This document shows positions 1,591-10,949 of a stretch of 33,160 nucleotides of DNA, in pieces (the stretch's first letter is position 1; each line of letters opens with the position of its first letter). A program made the translations under genes and the position numbers. Origin of the DNA: Candidatus Shapirobacteria bacterium (GTDB lineage: Bacteria > Patescibacteriota > Microgenomatia > UBA12405); NCBI GenBank assembly GCA_028700345.1, contig JAQVSW010000001.1, positions 1-33,160 of the forward strand. The letters run 5' to 3'. Below the pieces are notes generated by a model. The model was not told the origin of the DNA, searched no databases, and was given only the letters and a program-made list of their open reading frames with translations.

Positions 1591-3198
1591 ATGTTGCTAA
1601 GTCTTCGATTTCATTCTTTTACTCAAAAGCGCCAAAAAAGTATTTTCTCAGCTACTGTCGTTTTGGCGATTACTTTTGCCCTTTCCGCTATTTTGGGTTT
1701 CCTCAGAACTCGCCTACTTTATTCATTCTTTTTTAAATGTTGCATTCTTGAGCTTGATGCTTACAACGCTGCTTTTCGAATTCCTGATTTAATTTTTAAA
1801 CTTTTGGTAACCGGTGCTCTTTCTGCCTCTTTTATCCCTGTCTTTAGCAGTTATTTACACAAAGATAAAAAAGAAGCCTATAAAATGGCCTCTTCGGTCA
1901 TTAATTTGCTTTTATTATTTTTTATCGGCGTCTCAATTGTTGCGTTTATCTTTGCCCACCCTCTTTCCGAGCTCATTGCCAAAGGTTTTTCTCCTTATCA
2001 AATTGATTTAATGTCTAATTTAAGTCGAATTCTTCTTATTGCTCAAATATTTTTTCTCATTAGTAATTTTTTAACTGCCATTCTTCAGGTTAATCAAACA
2101 TTTATTATTTCTGCCCTGTCTCCCATCGTTTACAATCTCTTCATTATTCTCAGTATTTATACTCTAGCTCCAACATTTGCTATTTATGGAGTTGCTTGGG
2201 GGGTCGTAATTGGCGCCTTTTTCCACATGGCTATTCAAATTCCTTCGATTAGGAGACTTGGCTTTGTTTATTCCAAAATTGCCAGCTTTAAACTTAGTGG
2301 AGTAAAAGAAATTGTTCATTTGATGATTCCCAGGACCTTGTCTTTAGGATTGGCCGAAATAGAAAATACAGTTACCTTATTTTTTGCCTCGAGTTTAAGT
2401 GCTGGTTCAATCTCGCTTTTAAATTTGGCTCTCCAATTAATGTATCTTCCTAGTCGTATTTTTGGAACTACCGTTGGCCAGGCCTCTTTACCTGTACTTT
2501 CAAAAAATATTGCCAAAAATCAACTCAATTTGTTTCGAGAAACCGTTAGAAATACAATTTTACAGAGCCTTTTTATTGCCTTCCCGGTTGGAGTTTTAAT
2601 TTTAATCAATCGCCTGCCTATTGTTCGCTTGGCTTTCGGCAGTCGGCAGTTTCCCTGGTCCGCCACTCTATTAACTGCTCGGACTTTGGCTTTTTTAACT
2701 CCCGCCATTATCTGTCAAGCCGTTATTCAAATTTTAATTCGTTCTTTTTATGCTCTACATGACACCAAAACTCCTTTAAAAATATCTAGTATTTCTCTGT
2801 TTTTTAATGTTATTTCCAGTTATTTTTTTGTTAAATTCACTACTCTAGGTATTGTTGGCTTAGCCATTAGTGCCTCCATCACAAACATTATTCAATGTTT
2901 CGGCCTCTTTGCTTTATTTGTCTGGCGAGTTGATGGTCAAGGCTGGGAAAAAATGTTTTTTTCTTTTAGTCGTATTGTTTTAAGTTCAATTTTTTGTGGC
3001 TTAACCTCCTGGCTAACTCTTCGTTTCTTTGATCTTTTTATCTTAGATACCAGTAAAACTTTAAATGTTATATTAATTTTTGGAATTTCAGTTGTTTCTG
3101 GTCTCTTTTCCTTCTTAATTTCCGCTTGGCTTTTTCATTCTCCTGAGTATCTTCGATTCAAGTCTTATTTCCTTCGATTCTTTCATTTTCTTTCTTAG
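1591..3198 (+). CDS. murJ: lipid II flippase MurJ/MviN
   Basis: 535 aa and polytopic. It carries the MurJ-typical N-terminal region RTRLLYSFF..AYNAAFRIPDLIFKLLVTGALSASFIPVFS. Confidence 0.9.
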   Translation: MLLSLRFHSFTQKRQKSIFSATVVLAITFALSAILGFLRTRLLYSFFFKCCILELDAYNAAFRIPDLIFKLLVTGALSASFIPVFSSYLHKDKKEAYKMASSVINLLLLFFIGVSIVAFIFAHPLSELIAKGFSPYQIDLMSNLSRILLIAQIFFLISNFLTAILQVNQTFIISALSPIVYNLFIILSIYTLAPTFAIYGVAWGVVIGAFFHMAIQIPSIRRLGFVYSKIASFKLSGVKEIVHLMIPRTLSLGLAEIENTVTLFFASSLSAGSISLLNLALQLMYLPSRIFGTTVGQASLPVLSKNIAKNQLNLFRETVRNTILQSLFIAFPVGVLILINRLPIVRLAFGSRQFPWSATLLTARTLAFLTPAIICQAVIQILIRSFYALHDTKTPLKISSISLFFNVISSYFFVKFTTLGIVGLAISASITNIIQCFGLFALFVWRVDGQGWEKMFFSFSRIVLSSIFCGLTSWLTLRFFDLFILDTSKTLNVILIFGISVVSGLFSFLISAWLFHSPEYLRFKSYFLRFFHFLS

Positions 3199-3224
3199 GC
3201 ATTTTTGTTTATACTGTTTATAGT

Positions 3225-3803
3225 ATGCCTGCTAAAAAGGAGATTTCCTTATTACCAAACGAAGAAAACCTAAACACCTTTTCGGCCCGTTTTCTTAGAT
3301 GGGTTACCAGCGTGGGTCGAGTTGTGATTGTTTTTGTTGAGCTGATAGTAATTGGTGCTTTTTTATCTAGATTCTGGTTAGATAGAAAAAATTCAGATTT
3401 ATCCGAAACTCTTCGTCAACAAAAGGCTATTTTAGGCAGTACTCAGGAATTTGAAAAGGATTATCTTTCTCTTCAAGGACGGTTAAAATTTATTAAAAAT
3501 TTTTATAAAACAGAGCCCAAATACGTCCAATCTTTATCCTCTTTAATTCAAAGTATTCCCGAAGGGATTTATTTTCAAAACATTAGTTTTAATAGTAGTG
3601 AAAAAACAAATATTATAACCGGTAGTGTTGAATCATTTTCTTATCAGGAAGACGCCATCATAGACTTTATTGTTAATCTCAAGCTAAATCCCGATATTAG
3701 TTCGGTTAACGTTCAAAAAATTGAGAAAAAAACTAAGGATAGTAAATTTTATTTGAGTCTATCCTTATCTTTTAAAAAAAATGACCTCTCAAGCTCCAAA
3801 TAA
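3225..3803 (+). CDS. PilN-like bitopic membrane protein (fimbrial-assembly-type)
   Basis: 192 aa. The N-terminal KKEISLLPNEEN resembles the PilN INLLP motif. It is followed by one TM segment, a coiled-coil-like stretch and an alpha/beta C-terminal domain. Confidence 0.45.
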   Translation: MPAKKEISLLPNEENLNTFSARFLRWVTSVGRVVIVFVELIVIGAFLSRFWLDRKNSDLSETLRQQKAILGSTQEFEKDYLSLQGRLKFIKNFYKTEPKYVQSLSSLIQSIPEGIYFQNISFNSSEKTNIITGSVESFSYQEDAIIDFIVNLKLNPDISSVNVQKIEKKTKDSKFYLSLSLSFKKNDLSSSK

Positions 3804-4392
3804 TTTAAATATCTATTCCAGAGTTAGCCCTCTTCTCTCGTATTTATCAAAACAAAGTGAGAATAATAAATTTATTAAATCTGTTGAAATTAGCGCTACT
3901 TTTGTATTAATTTCTTTTTTTACTTTTTTTGCGATAAAACCAACCTTTTTAACAATTTCCAAGCTTGTTGGTGATATTAAAGCTAAAGAAATATTAGTCA
4001 AAGAATTAAAGGCAAAAATTAATAATGTGATTGTTTCTCAAGATCTTTTTTCGGAGGTTCAGGAAAAATACGCCTTAATTGAATCAAGCTTGCCTAGTAG
4101 CCCTCGTTTTTATCAAGCCGCCTCTCAAGTTGTTGGCTTGACTGAAAAAAACCAAATATATTTAGATAAGATAAATTACTCAATCACCGATTCCAATTAT
4201 TATTCCACCAGTATTAGCACCTCTTCTTCATTTTTATCTGCAACCTCTCTTTTATCTGAACTTCTTCAAAATCGACGACTTTTCCAAATTGATCAAATTT
4301 CTTTTTCACTTGAAAAAGACACTGGAAGCAAAATGATAAATATAAACTTGCCTTTAAAGATTTATTACTGGCCCAATAATGTCCAAAATTAA
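3781..4392 (+). CDS. PilO-like bitopic membrane protein
   Basis: 203 aa with one TM segment (FVLISFFTFFAI) followed by IKPTFLTISKLVGDIKAKEILVKELKAKINN, which looks like a coiled coil. It overlaps the previous gene by 23 nt. The assignment rests on architecture only. Confidence 0.35.
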   Translation: MTSQAPNNLNIYSRVSPLLSYLSKQSENNKFIKSVEISATFVLISFFTFFAIKPTFLTISKLVGDIKAKEILVKELKAKINNVIVSQDLFSEVQEKYALIESSLPSSPRFYQAASQVVGLTEKNQIYLDKINYSITDSNYYSTSISTSSSFLSATSLLSELLQNRRLFQIDQISFSLEKDTGSKMININLPLKIYYWPNNVQN

Positions 4393-4639
4393 ACTTTCAA
4401 AATATCTGGTTTTGATAAGTATTTTTACTTTTATTGCCATTTTTTTCTCTGTTGTCTCCCAAAGTTACAACAATTTAATTAAATCAACCGAGGAAAATCA
4501 AAACAACCCCCTTATTCGTTCTGTCTCTCCCGATCTTGACATTGATGTTCTTGATGAGATTGAAAAAAGGCAAGAAGTGATATTGTTAGAAACAGAAAAC
4601 TCCATCGAGGCAGAGAGTCAAGTTGAACCAGCCTTATGA
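4379..4639 (+). CDS. small membrane protein with acidic C-terminus, unknown function
   Basis: 86 aa with an N-terminal TM segment (YLVLISIFTFIAIFFSVV). It overlaps the upstream gene by 14 nt and the downstream gene through ATGA. Confidence 0.5.
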   Translation: MSKIKLSKYLVLISIFTFIAIFFSVVSQSYNNLIKSTEENQNNPLIRSVSPDLDIDVLDEIEKRQEVILLETENSIEAESQVEPAL

Positions 4640-5877
4640 AGGATAAAAAATTCCCAACTATTTTTGGAATCATTCTTCTTTTAATTATCTTATTTTTAGG
4701 TGTTTTTCTCTCCACTCAAAAAACAAGTTTAAATTCAAAAGCCAGTGTTTCTTGTGAGCCTATAAATACTCAAATAACCAATCTTACTGATAAATCTTTT
4801 GATTTTTCTTTTACCACTTCTTCTCCCTGTAGTGCTACCCTAACAATCAATAATATTCTTTATCAGGATGTTTCACTTTCTTTAACTACTCATTATTACA
4901 AGATTTTTAATCTTTCTCCCAAAACTGATTATAAATTCAGTCTTATTTCCGGTTCAACCACCTATTCCAGACCTGAATATTCTCTTACCACTGCCACAAA
5001 ACCAAATTCACCACCTCCCTCATCAAATTTAGCTTGGGGAAAAATAATTGATAAAAGCAACAAAGCTGTTTCTGGTGCCATAATTTATCTTACTCTTCCC
5101 GGCAGTCAAGCTCTTTCTGCCTTTTCCAATAAAGATGGTAACTGGAATATTTCTCTCGCTTCTAGTTTTAATGAGCAAAAAACCGATTGGTTTTCTCCCT
5201 CTTCGATTGTTGATGAAGAAATAATTGTCTATTCACCTGATGGTCAGTTAACTCAGGTTACTAATCAATCAGATCGAAACGATCCAGTTCCAGATATTAT
5301 TATCGGTCAAGATTATCTTTCTGTTATTCCCACCCCTCCCTCTTCATTTCAAAGCAGTTTAAATTCCTCTCAAATAGAGACCAGTTTAGCAAAATTAAGT
5401 ATTACCAGTCCTAAAGAAAATGAAACAATTTATACTTTAAAACCTGATATTTTTGGTCAAGGTCCAGCCAGTAATACCTTTCAATTAGATATAGATGGCA
5501 ATAAAGAAAATATCACCGTTTCCCCAAGTAATATTTGGAATTACTCTCCTTCTCAAAACTTATCACCTGGTTCTCATTTGTTAACATTAAATTTTCAAGG
5601 TGAAATTATAAGTCGTAATTTTGTAGTAGCTCAAACTAATGATTATCTTTCTTTTACCGCTACGCCTTCAGCCACTTTAATTCCCACTCAAGTTGTTATT
5701 CCCACGATTTTCGCTTCGCCAACTCCTATTATCCAGCCTACTTTAGTTCCTACTATCAGAACCGCCAAGCCTTCAACTACTTCCACTCTCTATGAAAGTG
5801 GTAATTCCCTGCCAACTTATTTAATATCGATTTTATCTATTTTATTTTTTGGTGTATCATTTTATTACTCTCATTAA
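4636..5877 (+). CDS. multidomain surface protein (Fn3-like, carboxypeptidase-regulatory-like and Ig-like beta domains, PT-rich linker, C-terminal TM tail)
   Basis: 413 aa with an N-terminal signal/anchor. WGKIIDKSNKAVSGAIIYLTLPGS..NKDGNWNISL resembles a CarboxypepD_reg-type domain. The C-terminus is LYESGNSLPTYLISILSILFFGVSFYYSH. Confidence 0.6.
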   Translation: MKDKKFPTIFGIILLLIILFLGVFLSTQKTSLNSKASVSCEPINTQITNLTDKSFDFSFTTSSPCSATLTINNILYQDVSLSLTTHYYKIFNLSPKTDYKFSLISGSTTYSRPEYSLTTATKPNSPPPSSNLAWGKIIDKSNKAVSGAIIYLTLPGSQALSAFSNKDGNWNISLASSFNEQKTDWFSPSSIVDEEIIVYSPDGQLTQVTNQSDRNDPVPDIIIGQDYLSVIPTPPSSFQSSLNSSQIETSLAKLSITSPKENETIYTLKPDIFGQGPASNTFQLDIDGNKENITVSPSNIWNYSPSQNLSPGSHLLTLNFQGEIISRNFVVAQTNDYLSFTATPSATLIPTQVVIPTIFASPTPIIQPTLVPTIRTAKPSTTSTLYESGNSLPTYLISILSILFFGVSFYYSH

Positions 5878-6866
5878 TGAAAAAATACGGTATTTTTAGT
5901 ATTCTATTTTTATTCCTTTCTTTGTTGGGGTCTCTTTATTTAGTCAAGATGAATCAAGATAATCGTAAGTATGCTCTAGATACTTATCGAGTCGACCCCC
6001 CAAACATTACTTTTACCTCCAATAAATCTGTCAAACTTTTTTTTACTACCAAAATTACTAATAATTCCTTTATTATTAAACTTCAGAATATAAATAATTC
6101 CAATGATATTATTACCCTTAGTACTGGCAATTCTCCAATGCCGATCAACACTACCCATATTTTTTCAAACATCTTAACTACCGGCTCTTCCCCAGCTACT
6201 TATCGTTTATCGGTTAAAGCCAGTCGTGATCTGTCTAACGCTTACGGCTGGGTGAATCCTAATTCTGGAGAAACTTGTGGAAAAAATAATAGCACCATAG
6301 TTCCTATTGGAGACGATATTAATCGGGCTCAACAAGAAGCAGATGGTCCTTTTCAAATTCAATGTTGGGCGGATGCCATCATTCCCGATGATACCCAAGA
6401 TTATGATTTTAATGATTGGTTAATGATTTTTGGATATGAAAAACCAATTGAAATTTCTCCAACTCCCACTAACACACCAGTTCCCACCGCCACCGGTACT
6501 CCTAAACCAACCAATACCCCCGTCCCCACTGCAACCAATATTCCTAAGCCCACCGCCACCAATACCCCCGTCCCCACTGCAACCAATACTCCTGCCCCTA
6601 CCGCCACCGGTACTCCTAAACCAACCAATACCCCCGTCCCCACTGCAACCAGTACTCCTAAGCCCACCGCCACTGGCACTCCTCAGCCTACTGCTACCAA
6701 TACGCCAATTCCGCCCACAAATACTCCTCTTCCAACCCAAGTCATTGCCCAGGGTCCTAGTCCAACTCGGATAATTTTACTTGAGTCCGGCATTGAATTT
6801 CCTTCCCAAATCTTAACTATCTTTGGTGGCATCATCACTCTTCTTGGATTTTTGATATTATTGTAG
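5877..6866 (+). CDS. surface protein with DUF4114-like motif, long TPxPTAT repeat linker and C-terminal TM tail
   Basis: 329 aa with an N-terminal signal-like segment. CWADAIIPDDTQDYDFNDWLMIFGY resembles the WED..D.DFND signature of DUF4114. About 95 aa consist of Pro/Thr repeats. The C-terminus is LLESGIEFPSQILTIFGGIITLLGFLILL. Confidence 0.6.
   Translation: MKKYGIFSILFLFLSLLGSLYLVKMNQDNRKYALDTYRVDPPNITFTSNKSVKLFFTTKITNNSFIIKLQNINNSNDIITLSTGNSPMPINTTHIFSNILTTGSSPATYRLSVKASRDLSNAYGWVNPNSGETCGKNNSTIVPIGDDINRAQQEADGPFQIQCWADAIIPDDTQDYDFNDWLMIFGYEKPIEISPTPTNTPVPTATGTPKPTNTPVPTATNIPKPTATNTPVPTATNTPAPTATGTPKPTNTPVPTATSTPKPTATGTPQPTATNTPIPPTNTPLPTQVIAQGPSPTRIILLESGIEFPSQILTIFGGIITLLGFLILL
6456..6740 (+). 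repeat. in-frame imperfect tandem repeat encoding (T/N)TP(V/K/A/Q)PTAT units
   Basis: A 47-nt perfect direct repeat (caccggtactcctaaaccaaccaatacccccgtccccactgcaacca) occurs at 6491..6537 and 6605..6651. A third copy of aatacccccgtccccactgcaaccaata lies at 6561..6588. Confidence 0.9.
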
Positions 6867-6867
6867 T

Positions 6868-7773
6868 GTGTTAGCCATTATTGAAGCTCTTCGTCCAAAT
6901 CAGTGGATAAAAAATCTTAGTCTTTTCGCAGCGGCCATTCTCACTGGTCAACTTTTTAATCACAGAATATTTAATGCCAGCTTACTCGCATTTATTTCTT
7001 TTTGTGTTCTTTCCTCATCCTCTTATTTAGTCAATGATCTTCTTGATATTGATAAAGATCGTCTTCATCCTGTTAAAAAATATCGCCCACTTGCTCGTGG
7101 AGCTATTAGTAAAAATACTTCTCTTTTTGTTGCTCTTTTTTTAACAATTCTGGGTCTTTTTATTGCTTTTTCTATAAATTCAGCTTTTTTTATTATCGCT
7201 CTTGTTTTTATTTTTATGCAGTATTCATATTCTCTTTTTATTAAAAAAAAGGCCCTTATAGACATTGTCAGTATTGCATTTTTCTTTATTCTCAGAACTT
7301 ATGCTGGTGAAATTGCCACTGGCTTCCATTTGCCTATTTGGATTACCCTGACAGTTATTTTTCTAGCTTTATTTATTGCTAGTGGTAAACGACGGAGCGA
7401 ACTCTACCTCAGTGGAAAATCAACTCGCAAAGCTCTTGAGGGATACAGTAAAAGTTTACTAAATTTTTACACTACTATTTTTGCCGTCTGTACCTTAATT
7501 AGCTATGCCATGTTTACTTTTTTAGCCGAAAAAGTTAGTTTTGATGGCATTATTCATGAGTTTTTATTGACAAATTTTCCCGCCGCTCTTGATCGAAAAT
7601 GGTGGATGGTTACTCTTATGCCCGTAATTCTTGGCATTATGCGTTATGGTCAAATTATTTTTGAAATGCAGGAAGGTGAAAGGCCTGAAAGAGTTGTTGC
7701 CACCGATATTCCCTTACTTGGTTCAGTTCTTCTTTGGGGAATGATGATAATTACTATTATCTATGTTCTCTAA
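6868..7773 (+). CDS. UbiA-family prenyltransferase, decaprenyl-phosphate phosphoribosyltransferase (DPPR synthase)-like
   Basis: 301 aa with a GTG start. The N-terminal ALRPNQWIKNL and the NDLLDIDKDRLHPVKKYRPLARGAIS motif (NDxxDxxxD) match what I recall for Rv3806c-type enzymes. The protein is polytopic. Confidence 0.75.
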   Translation: MLAIIEALRPNQWIKNLSLFAAAILTGQLFNHRIFNASLLAFISFCVLSSSSYLVNDLLDIDKDRLHPVKKYRPLARGAISKNTSLFVALFLTILGLFIAFSINSAFFIIALVFIFMQYSYSLFIKKKALIDIVSIAFFFILRTYAGEIATGFHLPIWITLTVIFLALFIASGKRRSELYLSGKSTRKALEGYSKSLLNFYTTIFAVCTLISYAMFTFLAEKVSFDGIIHEFLLTNFPAALDRKWWMVTLMPVILGIMRYGQIIFEMQEGERPERVVATDIPLLGSVLLWGMMIITIIYVL

Positions 7774-9319
7774 AAAAAATTCTCTCTCTCTTTTTTTGAT
7801 TATTTTTATAGTTTCATTGTCTATTTTTACCCGTTTTTACAATTTAAACTGGGGTAGTAATTACCATTTTCATCCTGATGAAAACAATATGGCCTCGGCT
7901 CTTTCTCGTTTACAGATTTACAATTTAGATCCCAAATTTTATCCTTACGGCCAGTTTCCTCTTTATTTAGGGTTTTTTACTTTAAAAATATTTAATCTTC
8001 CCCCTTCTTTTTCTAATTCAATTTTAATTCTTCGCTTTTATTCTGCCTTTTTTTCTATCTTATCAGTCGGTTTAATTTATTTAGTTTCTCAAAAAATTTT
8101 TTCCCAAAAATTTTCTATCTTAGTCTCAATTTTAACTATTTTTAGTCCTGGACTAATTCAGCTAGCTCATTTTGGGACTACCGAAAGCCTATTAATTTTT
8201 ATATTTTTACTCGAAATATATTTATCAATTTTGATTTACCAAAAAAAAGATAATTATTGGCAGTACATCCTTGCTGGCATCTTTGGCGGTATTGGCATAG
8301 CCACTAAAATATCCTCTCTTATTTTTTTAGGTCCAATTTTTTTAGTTTCTCTAATGAAATTTATTTCAAAAGAAAAAATACTATCTCTTTTTTTAAAAAT
8401 TTATATATTAATATTTTTTGTTATTAACTTTTATTTGATTTCTTCTCCATACAATTTTGCTAAGAGTCAAGATTTCTTCTCCTCGATGAAATATGAAACT
8501 AGTGTTGCCACTGGGGAGTTGTCAGTTTTTTACACCACTCAGTTTAAAAATACCCTACCTTATTTATTTCAAATCCAAAAAATATTTCCTTATTCTTCAG
8601 GTATCTTTCAATTCATCTTTACCATCATTGGTCTAGTTTTTTTATTGAAAAATTGGAAACTCAAAGAAGATAAATATCTTTACTGGTTTATTATTTTGAT
8701 TCCTTCTTTAGTTTACTTTTTTTATTTCGGTCAAATTTTTGCTAAATGGACCCGTTTCGTCTCCCCTTTATTTTTTTTATTTCCCCTACTCTCAGTTTAT
8801 TTTATTTCTCTCCTGAAATCTAAAATCTATTGTCTAATCTCTATCATCTTAGCTCTCCTTCCCGGTCTATATTTTATGAAACTATATTTTGTCTCTGATA
8901 TTCGTCTTACTGCTTCCCGGTGGATAGAAAATAATATTCCGCAGGGTTCAAGCATTCTTTCTGAGGGGGGTAATGTCGTTAATATTCCAATTACTGATCA
9001 AAACTACCAGGTTATTAATTATGATTTCTATGGTGATAATTATCCAAACGAATTGTCTAATCATCTCTTTACTTCTAACTATATTATTATTCCTTCTCGT
9101 CGGGTCTTTAAAAATTATGATTTAAAATATCACCAGTATCTTTTTGATGGTAGCCTGGGATATAAAGAAATCAATAAAATATCTCCCAATTACGACCTGT
9201 TTTTAGATTCAGAAAATGCTGAAGAAACTTGGTCCGTTTTTGATCATCCCACTATTCGAGTTTTTGAAAAAGTTAATGAGTTGACTCAAGAGGAATATGA
9301 AAAGCTTCTACAAAAATAA
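7763..9319 (+). CDS. GT-C fold membrane glycosyltransferase (GT39/ArnT-like), paralog 1
   Basis: 518 aa with many TM segments. The first loop reads FYNLNWGSNYHFHPDENNM, an acidic DE motif after TM1. The soluble C-terminal domain carries WSVFDHPTIRVFEK. Confidence 0.65.
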   Translation: MFSKKNSLSLFLIIFIVSLSIFTRFYNLNWGSNYHFHPDENNMASALSRLQIYNLDPKFYPYGQFPLYLGFFTLKIFNLPPSFSNSILILRFYSAFFSILSVGLIYLVSQKIFSQKFSILVSILTIFSPGLIQLAHFGTTESLLIFIFLLEIYLSILIYQKKDNYWQYILAGIFGGIGIATKISSLIFLGPIFLVSLMKFISKEKILSLFLKIYILIFFVINFYLISSPYNFAKSQDFFSSMKYETSVATGELSVFYTTQFKNTLPYLFQIQKIFPYSSGIFQFIFTIIGLVFLLKNWKLKEDKYLYWFIILIPSLVYFFYFGQIFAKWTRFVSPLFFLFPLLSVYFISLLKSKIYCLISIILALLPGLYFMKLYFVSDIRLTASRWIENNIPQGSSILSEGGNVVNIPITDQNYQVINYDFYGDNYPNELSNHLFTSNYIIIPSRRVFKNYDLKYHQYLFDGSLGYKEINKISPNYDLFLDSENAEETWSVFDHPTIRVFEKVNELTQEEYEKLLQK

Positions 9320-10949
9320 ATTAATAATATTTTTAATTTTTATAATTGCCTTTCTTTTTCGTATTTACGGTTTAAATTGGGATGATAACAATCATCTTCA
9401 TCCTGACGAGAGATTTTTGACTATGGTCGTAAACGATATCAAATTACCCTCTTCTTTTTCAGAGTATCTAAACACCGACATTTCACCTCTTAATCCTTAC
9501 AATTACCCTCAGTATCAGTTTTTTGTTTACGGTACTTTTCCTCTATTTTTAACAAAAATATTCGCCGTATTATTTCATCTAGATGATTATAATCACATCA
9601 CCCTCCTTGGCCGAGTACTCTCGGCATTTTTTGATTCAGGCAACGTTATTCTTCTTTATTTTATTGCCAAAAAATTTCTTAAATCTTACTATATTTTTCT
9701 TCCTTCGCTTTTTTATACTTTTTTAGTTATCCCTCTCCAGCTTTCTCATTTTTTCGCCGTTGATACTTTTTTAACTTTTTTTATTCTCTTAACATTTACC
9801 TTATTTTCTTATAATCTTTTTCCTCTTGCCTTTTTTGCTTTTGGTATTGCTCTTTCCTGTAAAATTTCCGCTCTTTACTTTATTCCGATTATCCTTTTAT
9901 TTTTAATCAAAAATAAAAATCTAAAATCTATTTTCTATTGTCAAATTTCTATTTTGGCTTTTCGAATATTTCAACCTTATGCTTTTACTAATATTTTTAA
10001 AATTAATCCTCTCTTTATTGATAATCTAAAAACCCTTGCCAATTTTTCCGGATCTGATATTTATTATCCACCGGGAGTTCAGTGGATCAATCGACTTTTG
10101 TTTTTAGATTCTTCAGTTAATCTAGTTGTTTGGGGATTGGGTCTGGTATTTTCTTTACCTTTATTATTTTTAATTTTTCGTTTTTTTATTAAACCAAAAA
10201 TTAAATTTAATTTAATCTTCATTATTTCTTTTTGGATTATCCTACTGTTTATTTATCAATCTCTCCAATTTGCTCACACTATGCGTTATTATCTGCCTGT
10301 TTATCCGTTTATTTGTCTAATTTTTGTAACTCTTTTGTCTCAATTTAAATTAAAAAAATTCATAATTATTTTAATCTTAATCCTTAATATTTTTTATGCC
10401 CTTGCTTTTCTCTCAATTTATTCTCGTCCCAATTCTCGGATACAGGCATCAAATTGGATAAATCAATATATTCCTCAGGGCAGTGTTCTAAGTAGTGAAT
10501 ATTGGGACGATGCCCTGCCTCTAGGTTATTCTGATTATGAAAATATCTCTCTCCCTCTTTTTGATCCAGACACTCCAGAAAAATGGGAAAAAATCAACCA
10601 TTCGCTTGAGGAGATTGATTATATAATAATGTCCAGCAATCGTCTATGGGCCTCAATTCCTAGAGTTTCAGAGAAGTATCCCTTAGCTTCAGAATTTTAT
10701 AGAAACCTTTTTGCTGAAAAATTAAATTTTAAAAAATTCAAAGAATTTAATTCTTACCCCGGTTTTTCTCTCTCGTTTCTAAAATCTTGTCTATACCTAG
10801 GCCCTACCAATTACCCTGGCATTAAAAACACCTGGTTTTCTGTTGACAATAACTGTTCTTATCCAGGTATTTATTTTCGTGATGACACCTCCGAGGAAGC
10901 ATTTACTGTCTACGACCATCCGAAGGTTTTAATCTTTGAGAGAAAATGA
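9297..10949 (+). CDS. GT-C fold membrane glycosyltransferase (GT39/ArnT-like), paralog 2
   Basis: 550 aa with the same architecture as paralog 1. The first loop reads IYGLNWDDNNHLHPDERFL and the C-terminus reads FTVYDHPKVLIFERK. It overlaps the previous gene by 23 nt. Confidence 0.65.
   Translation: MKSFYKNKLIIFLIFIIAFLFRIYGLNWDDNNHLHPDERFLTMVVNDIKLPSSFSEYLNTDISPLNPYNYPQYQFFVYGTFPLFLTKIFAVLFHLDDYNHITLLGRVLSAFFDSGNVILLYFIAKKFLKSYYIFLPSLFYTFLVIPLQLSHFFAVDTFLTFFILLTFTLFSYNLFPLAFFAFGIALSCKISALYFIPIILLFLIKNKNLKSIFYCQISILAFRIFQPYAFTNIFKINPLFIDNLKTLANFSGSDIYYPPGVQWINRLLFLDSSVNLVVWGLGLVFSLPLLFLIFRFFIKPKIKFNLIFIISFWIILLFIYQSLQFAHTMRYYLPVYPFICLIFVTLLSQFKLKKFIIILILILNIFYALAFLSIYSRPNSRIQASNWINQYIPQGSVLSSEYWDDALPLGYSDYENISLPLFDPDTPEKWEKINHSLEEIDYIIMSSNRLWASIPRVSEKYPLASEFYRNLFAEKLNFKKFKEFNSYPGFSLSFLKSCLYLGPTNYPGIKNTWFSVDNNCSYPGIYFRDDTSEEAFTVYDHPKVLIFERK

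Follow-up and report, generated by a model that had tools for sequence, protein, structure and literature searches.

The window analysed here, a 33,160-nucleotide stretch of Candidatus Shapirobacteria DNA (contig JAQVSW010000001.1, forward strand; contig C45 of our 705-kb, 87-contig, 89 %-complete genome), contains two adjacent open reading frames (ORFs) for surface proteins, A (4636..5877, plus strand, 413 residues) and B (5877..6866, plus strand, 329 residues), that end in similar tails. These tails are very probably lineage-specific derivatives of the LPXTG-type sorting signal, with tyrosine in A and leucine in B in place of the proline at P3. To the fuller reading, which joins this derivation with continued cleavage of the Pro-less, charge-less tails by a sortase, we give a probability of roughly 60 %; the continued cleavage is what we infer from sequence comparison. 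A preliminary description of the same DNA had noticed the shared tail and took it as a candidate new sorting system that matched none of the known signals. The second part does not hold, as L-x-E-S-G aligns column by column with L-P-x-T-G and the orthologues carry LPXTG-type signals.

The tails and their orthologues

The last 29 residues of A, translated from 5788-5877, are LYESGNSLPTYLISILSILFFGVSFYYSH, followed by the stop codon; those of B, translated from 6777-6866, are LLESGIEFPSQILTIFGGIITLLGFLILL, again followed by the stop. Coordinates and sequences were as first reported: A ends with LYESGNSLPT and B with LLESGIEFPS, each followed by a transmembrane (TM) segment. The pentapeptides LYESG (5788..5802, plus strand) and LLESG (6777..6791, plus strand) both lie 24 residues before the chain end, and in A the changes relative to LPXTG are Pro to Tyr at P3 and Thr to Ser at P1. 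Positions +3 to +5 after the glycine are occupied by L-P-T in A (5809..5817, plus strand) and by F-P-S in B (6798..6806, plus strand). The Pro-less motif stretches read TSTLYESGNSLPT and RIILLESGIEFPS, and the signal stretches from P8 to P8' are PSTTSTLYESGNSLPTY in A and PTRIILLESGIEFPSQ in B. What remains is hydrophobic, namely the helix YLISILSILFFGVSFYYSH in A (5818..5874, plus strand; TM segment after the motif, YLISILSILFFGVSFYY), which ends in YYSH, and the segment QILTIFGGIITLLGFLILL in B (6807..6863, plus strand; TM segment, ILTIFGGIITLLGFLILL), which ends in LILL. No Lys or Arg (K/R) follows the hydrophobic stretch in either protein, and linkers rich in Pro and Thr (PT-rich) precede both tails, as had also been described. 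The linker of A (5656..5787, plus strand; residues 341-384) consists of 55 % Pro, Thr and Ser and holds the conserved pre-motif PTIRTAKPSTTS; the repeat linker of B (6453..6776, plus strand; residues 193-300) reaches 61 % and ends in the conserved pre-motif GPSPTRII.

The two 29-mers share 7 of 29 residues, and are therefore weak evidence by themselves. Across the genome (2232 six-frame ORFs of at least 60 residues), L.E[ST]G occurs 15-35 residues from the C-terminus in 3 cases, and a hydrophobic segment follows it only in the adjacent A and B. A profile-profile alignment of 119 A-family tails with 50 B-family tails gave P = 3.4e-4 and placed pentapeptide on pentapeptide and FP[TS] on FP[TS], which is the gapless register proposed at the outset. 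The resemblance between the two tails is beyond chance.

The origin of the signal is most readily followed in family A, for which we collected 120 cluster representatives that share 37-92 % of their residues with the A of the window. Distant orthologues end with ...PST[KS]SG-[VIM]P[VKT][TS]G-N-x-Φ-PT (Φ, hydrophobic), a TM segment and K/R, and thus carry a normal sortase-type signal. Nearer ones end with ...PSTTS[TSA]-L[YIL]x[ST]G-x-x-[FL]PT and a TM segment. Both forms align without a gap (for example, PSTKSG-VPVTG-SSFPG versus PSTTST-LYESG-NSLPT), and VPVTG, IPVTG, IPKTG and similar pentapeptides occupy the orthologue columns of LYESG, which makes LYESG the positional equivalent of VPVTG or LPXTG. 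Proline is found at P3 in 53/113 representatives and K/R within the last 8 residues in 81/113. About 108 of the 120 have Φ-P-T at +3 to +5; this count depends in part on the anchoring rule, and seven sequences without Φ-P-T were left out.

In a maximum-likelihood tree of the A ectodomains, from which the tail had been removed, the 60 Pro-less representatives, which are 46-92 % identical to the A of the window, all fall into one clade nested among the Pro-bearing ones. Two Pro-bearing members, with LPKSG and MPTTG, sit inside that clade, so that Pro and Tyr/Leu/Ile are interchangeable at P3. Within the Pro-less clade, Leu at P4 is kept in 59/60, and Ser or Thr at P1, the glycine, Pro at +4 and Thr at +5 are each kept in 60/60, versus a variable x position and a variable linker; this is a pattern of constraint and not of decay. 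K/R was lost later, and only in the subclade to which the window belongs; sister species end with YYYRR or YYYRK.

Family B tells a similar story at higher conservation. Proline is present at P3 in 43 of its 50 representatives (LPx[SAT]G, with one LPVVG), and the other 7 have LL[EK][ST]G; these LL forms are limited to the closest relatives of the window and are nested inside the LY clade of A. Since Pro is found at this position in 53/113 A and 43/50 B representatives, the Tyr and Leu of the window are derived states. Almost all members fit the consensus LPx[SA]G-x-[ED]-FP[SA]Q followed by an invariant 24-residue end. Phe at +3 and Pro at +4 occur in 50/50, in columns that were not used in selecting the sequences, and Pro at -11, Pro at -9 and Thr at -8 are invariant in 50/50 as well. 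The chain stops exactly 24 residues past the glycine, with G+12, I+14, G+19 and L+23 invariant, and in 0/50 is there a K/R in the last 8 residues. When the 43-residue B tail was searched against 1.84 billion cluster representatives, 45 clusters were obtained. In 43 of these the match runs to the very end of the protein, in one (P0260) it stops one residue short, and in one (P0255) it falls in an internal repeat. With only 45 clusters, the B-type tail is restricted to a narrow lineage and is not a module of wide distribution; within the genus it is single-copy per genome.

A third family links the primed-side element to a sortase. Protein C (G000:C63:351-839, 163 residues, Ig-like) ends with a canonical LPAAG-IIWPS, a TM segment and RMIRASKK. 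Its family is unrelated to A and B, and all of the 10 orthologues carry LP[AT][AV]G-x-x-W-P-[GTS], a TM segment and K/R. According to gene coordinates, C lies 3-5 kb from one of the sortases of the genome (sortase-1, below) in at least nine genomes. The presence of W-P-[GTS] in C, beside a sortase, places the primed-side ΦP[TSG] on a canonical, sortase-linked substrate. Several unrelated proteins from other families of the order end with (E)LP[EQR][STA]G and a TM segment, with no basic tail. The claim of a conserved tripartite C-terminal signal common to unrelated proteins is thus borne out by families A, B and C and by further proteins in sister families, and the [LF]P[TS] noticed three residues after the glycine proves to be a genuine, conserved, lineage-wide extension in the three families. 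On these sequences, the signal used in the order would read Φ-[P/Y/L/I]-x-[STA]-G-x-x-[FLW]-P-[TSG]-TM, with an optional charged end.

In the scan suggested in the preliminary description, the tail was found in related genomes. In this genome, which was scanned with regular expressions and hidden Markov models (HMMs), the tail HMMs match A and B and no other protein; two canonical candidates lie on contigs C29 and C63. The candidate on C29 (G000:C29:9494-10102, minus strand, about 196 residues) is a possible fourth sortase substrate, with a normal signal peptide, IPVTG-NTDLV, a TM segment and RKVARGY, and without the Φ-P-[TS] extension. In this genome C lies about 3 kb from sortase-1 (loci G000:C63:351-839 and G000:C63:3652-4032), and genes for a 386-residue protein, a RuvX-like protein and an MltG/YceG-like protein lie between them.

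Sortases of the genome and comparison with known signals

Two sortases score above the Pfam cut-off (PF04203, 82.1 and 59.6 bits versus 26.6). Sortase-1 (G000:C63) has the motifs GHS...TLITC...LRRL and an N-terminal anchor and is highly conserved; sortase-2 (G000:C14) has AHS...LQTC...NRLL and likewise an N-terminal anchor. The best NCBIfam class C/D/E scores of the two are 50-60 bits versus cut-offs of at least 160, so far below that neither enzyme falls into a defined class. For class_E_sortase (NF033747, cut-off 160 bits) the scores are 49.4 bits for sortase-1 and 17.1 bits for sortase-2. The best sequence matches of sortase-1 in the PDB include the class D/E-type structures 4d70 and 5go5/5go6. 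In three genomes of the genus (G007, G019 and G021; 100, 94 and 83 % complete) only the sortase-1 orthologue was seen, yet A, B and C are kept, which suggests that one enzyme may serve all three proteins.

A search for a processing enzyme that co-occurs with the tail had been suggested before. Of the known C-terminal sorting enzymes, only sortase was found, in two copies. Searches of the genome (89 % complete) for exosortase (PF09721) and rhomboid (PF01694) gave no match with E of 1 or less, nor was a CPBP protease detected in it.

The closest described relative of the A and B tails is the LPXTG cell-wall signal read by housekeeping sortases in Gram-positive bacteria (TIGR01167, PF00746 Gram_pos_anchor; Staphylococcus aureus SrtA). 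Common to both are an N-terminal signal, a hydrophobic P4, Ser or Thr at P1, Gly at P1', a TM helix after it, and a pentapeptide about 24-28 residues before the C-terminus; moreover, the genome has His/Cys/Arg sortases, and orthologues have true [VIL]PxTG and K/R. The window tails differ in having Tyr (A) or Leu (B) at P3, Ser at P1, no positively charged tail, scores below the HMM cut-offs, the extra Φ-P-[TSG] at +3 to +5, conserved residues 8-12 positions upstream, and sortases outside the defined classes. In descent and layout the window tails belong with the sortase/LPXTG signals; formally they depart from them in three respects, namely the P3 proline, the charged tail and the HMM cut-offs. 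The B consensus tail comes close to one model, with 15.0 bits on TIGR01167 LPXTG_anchor (cut-off 15.9), and it scores 12.0 bits on PF00746 (cut-off 20).

A natural precedent for a P3 residue other than Pro is provided by class E sortases, which accept LAXTG (PMC5148588). The class E system (SrtE1/E2 of Streptomyces coelicolor, Corynebacterium; PMC5148588) shares with the tails the lack of Pro at P3, and sortase-1 matches class D/E-type structures. Unlike LAXTG, however, the signals here have the bulky Tyr, Leu or Ile at P3 and not Ala, the class_E HMM scores lie far under the cut-off, and the Chaplin-type substrates retain a basic tail whereas the window tails are without one. Exosortase/PEP-CTERM, archaeosortase/PGF-CTERM and rhombosortase/GlyGly-CTERM share only the plan of a short motif, a TM helix and the protein end; their motifs are unmatched, and exosortase and rhomboid genes were not detected in the genome. 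PEP-CTERM, PGF-CTERM and GlyGly-CTERM signals normally have an Arg/Lys cluster. In the literature searched, we found no description of sortase or LPXTG signals of such form from the candidate phyla radiation (CPR), Patescibacteria or Saccharibacteria.

Proposed continued cleavage and its alternatives

We propose the following sequence of events. The N-terminal signals would export A and B, and the C-terminal helix would hold them in the membrane, where a housekeeping sortase, for which sortase-1 with its His-Cys-Arg motif set is the candidate, would cut between Ser and Gly (LYES|G in A and LLES|G in B). The cleaved proteins would be passed to lipid II/peptidoglycan. In this way a conserved envelope operon would supply the wall with fixed stalks of Ig domains, from A, and with peptides rich in Pro and Thr and probably glycosylated, from B. 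Which sortase cuts, and that the products are attached to the wall, we infer. We favour continued sortase processing over a plain membrane anchor because the genome holds two intact sortases and no other sorting enzyme was detected in it, and because L, S/T, G and ΦPT are all but invariant in the Pro-less clade. Nor does the lack of a charged end signify decay, since B proteins with LPxSG or LPxTG and other LPE[ST]G proteins of the order are also without a basic end.

Several observations weigh against continued cleavage. First, the window tails have lost the textbook marks: P3 Pro and the basic end are both absent, and neither tail matched TIGR01167, PF00746 or any NCBIfam CTERM model at E up to 10. 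No documented sortase signal is known in which P3 is Tyr, Leu or Ile. The core read by characterised sortases is PXT, Ala being the sole departure from it, and the classical definition of the sorting signal includes the positively charged end (PMC5148588). Second, sortase-1 gives no hint of adaptation. When its catalytic domain was compared between species that have and species that lack the Pro in A, the conserved core held no discriminating column, and the few elsewhere are clade markers confounded with phylogeny; there is thus no sign of a co-evolving specificity shift. Third, in the distant Microgenomates contigs no sortase was found closer than 10 kb to the A/B operon. Fourth, phylogenetic profiling, with a sortase in 41/41 relatives, A in 40/41 of the related genomes searched and the B tail in 33/41, is uninformative because both the sortase and A occur almost throughout the order. 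Fifth, the B tail with its TM helix, GGIITLLGFLILL, shows much stronger conservation than a propeptide that is thrown away would require, and its glycines are fixed, which hints at a lasting role in the membrane.

One alternative is a retained membrane anchor, a real though rather doubtful possibility, according to which the tails descend from a sortase signal and are no longer cleaved here, the loss of P3 Pro and of the basic end marking the switch. The juxtamembrane motif and the GxxxxxxG helix might then serve another interaction, for example with the PilN/O-like or GT-C proteins of the operon. Such a role would explain why both the P3 Pro and the K/R tail are gone in the window, with no compensating change in sortase-1 and no sortase in or near the operon, and the near-invariant B helix with its fixed glycines fits helix-helix packing better than a throw-away signal. 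The losses are also nested and sequential, first the Pro of A and then the Pro of B, with the K/R loss of A in the same subclade. However, an anchor gives no obvious reason why L (P4), S/T (P1) and G (P1'), exactly the residues on which sortases depend, should stay nearly unchanged across 60 diverged Pro-less representatives, and Pro reappears inside the Pro-less A clade. In addition, B is never basic-tailed, even with a perfect LPxSG or LPxTG, so that absence of charge is the local norm.

That the ESG...ΦP[TS]...TM tail is instead read by an undescribed, non-sortase enzyme, as the preliminary description would have it, we consider very unlikely. The tails do fail the curated LPXTG models and have no charged end, and residues beyond the pentapeptide are conserved, both upstream (GPSPTRII and PTIRTAKPSTTS) and downstream (ΦP[TS]). 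Yet orthologues run directly from these tails to [VIL]PxTG signals with K/R, and the LPAAG protein that is linked to a sortase bears the same primed-side element. The operon offers no conserved candidate for the enzyme, its other genes being assigned to envelope synthesis, and exosortase, rhombosortase and CPBP enzymes were not detected. In this genome the tail HMMs match nothing but A and B, and a dedicated machine for two proteins in a 0.7-Mb genome would also be unparsimonious. Finally, chance resemblance or a recent tandem duplication of A and B, suggested by the few identities and the adjacency of the genes and feared in the preliminary description should no other carriers exist, is already refuted by the significant profile-profile alignment in the expected register, by the unrelated ectodomains, and by the separate orthologues with conserved tails that each gene has across the order.

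Having set out the case for continued sortase cleavage, we would mention a more far-reaching version of it, which is speculative and, taken whole, improbable. An unclassified CPR sortase might read mainly the primed side ([ST]-G-x-x-Φ-P-[TSG] and the helix), accept any bulky P3 and need no charged tail, in which case LYxSG and LLESG would be fully active signals of a new specificity class. B might then be a wall-anchored PT-peptide acceptor for the lipid-linked pentofuranose GT-C transferases of the operon, and the product a peptidoglycan-bound proteoglycan that replaces wall teichoic acid or arabinogalactan-type polymers. B shrinks to forms of 106-150 residues in which only the signal, the PT linker and the tail are left.

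Much of bacterial diversity belongs to the CPR/Patescibacteria, and hardly anything on the surface of their cells has been annotated. Tails of the kind described here are missed by standard LPXTG models, so that wall-anchored proteins go uncalled; with the rule Φ-[P/Y/L/I]-x-[STA]-G-x-x-[FLW]-P-[TSG], a TM segment and an optional basic end, one could predict which surface proteins of Microgenomates are anchored. Should the Pro-less forms indeed be cleaved, the P3 substrate range of sortases would be widened and the charged tail would be dispensable in this envelope, which would matter both for the enzymology of sortases and for the protein ligation tools based on them. Two anchored proteins tied to a conserved operon with murJ, pilN/O-like and glycosylation genes would, moreover, offer a handle on the wall-associated layer of ultra-small cells. 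What the present analysis adds, at the level of sequence, is a dated transition, within the genus, from Pro to Tyr/Ile/Leu under continued constraint, a primed-side ΦP[TSG] in three families, one of them sortase-linked, and a charge-less, ultra-conserved B tail encoded in a conserved envelope operon.

Protein architecture and operon context

Protein A starts with MKDKKFPTIFGIILLLIILFLGVFL, has its N-terminal TM segment or signal at residues 7-27, and continues with three tandem Ig/Fn3-like beta-sandwich domains (residues 43-118, 132-211 and 255-331), to which Pfam gives weak fn3, CarboxypepD_reg and Big_13 matches. The AlphaFold2 model (mean predicted local distance difference test score, pLDDT, 76.8) has a helix at residues 7-27, the three beta-sandwich domains, a disordered linker (pLDDT < 50 at residues 336-389) and a C-terminal helix at 391-412. 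A Foldseek search with A matched generic tandem Ig/BIg and Ig/Fn3 proteins only and gave no pilin-specific fold. The third beta-sandwich (window 5440-5634) is weakly similar to the ectodomain of protein C (E = 5e-4 within one genome), both being Big_13-like Ig domains.

Protein B starts with MKKYGIFSILFLFLSLLGSLYL. Its conserved N-terminal signal/anchor (MKKYGIFSILFLFLSLLGSLYLVKMNQDNRKYA) is followed by an ectodomain that is hypervariable, and this by a long TPxPTAT linker and the ultra-conserved tail. A QDxRxxA motif at the N-terminus, looked for as a genome-wide feature, occurs in B only. Across the family the length ranges from 106 to 468 residues, with both termini conserved. The ectodomains (window 5970-6450; P0122-P0216) are Cys-rich and near-wholly different between close relatives, with identity at the termini only, as if a domain exposed on the surface were diversifying rapidly. 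Many members are 'mini' proteins, such as L006:11262-11582 (106 residues) and P0245, P0246, P0248, P0254, P0257, P0258 and P0267 (109-138 residues), in which a short PT linker joins the conserved signal/anchor of the N-terminus to the conserved tail, without a globular domain. Given these forms, the anchored PT peptide itself may be what carries the conserved function of B, for instance by accepting glycosylation from the downstream GT-C enzymes.

The two genes lie in a tightly packed, co-directional chain. Upstream (1591..4639, plus strand) are murJ, a PilN-like gene, a PilO-like gene and a gene for a small TM protein, the last overlapping A; Pfam matches support MurJ and PilN, the PilN-like gene scoring above the Pfam PilN cut-off. 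Downstream (6868..10949, plus strand) are a UbiA-family (DPPR-synthase-like) prenyltransferase and two GT-C/PMT-like glycosyltransferases. Close homologues come from sources named Candidatus Shapirobacteria and Woesebacteria (CPR/Microgenomates). The same gene order is found in distant Microgenomates contigs, with B absent in one and 106 residues long in another.

As for a link to pili, the PilN-like protein (window 3225-4392) begins ...KKEISLLPNEEN, which resembles the PilM-binding N-terminus. The only good PilM match in the genome (PF11104, 173 bits) is on another contig, C41 (G000:C41:2010-3014). A type IV prepilin-like ORF in G000:C78 (minus strand, first 603 nt of the reverse complement; ...KRAFTLFELLVSISIIG...) indicates that the genome has pilins, though not beside the PilN/O-like pair of the window. 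The order murJ, PilN-like, PilO-like, small TM protein, A is kept in distant Microgenomates, which suggests an envelope role for this gene set apart from the pilus cluster.

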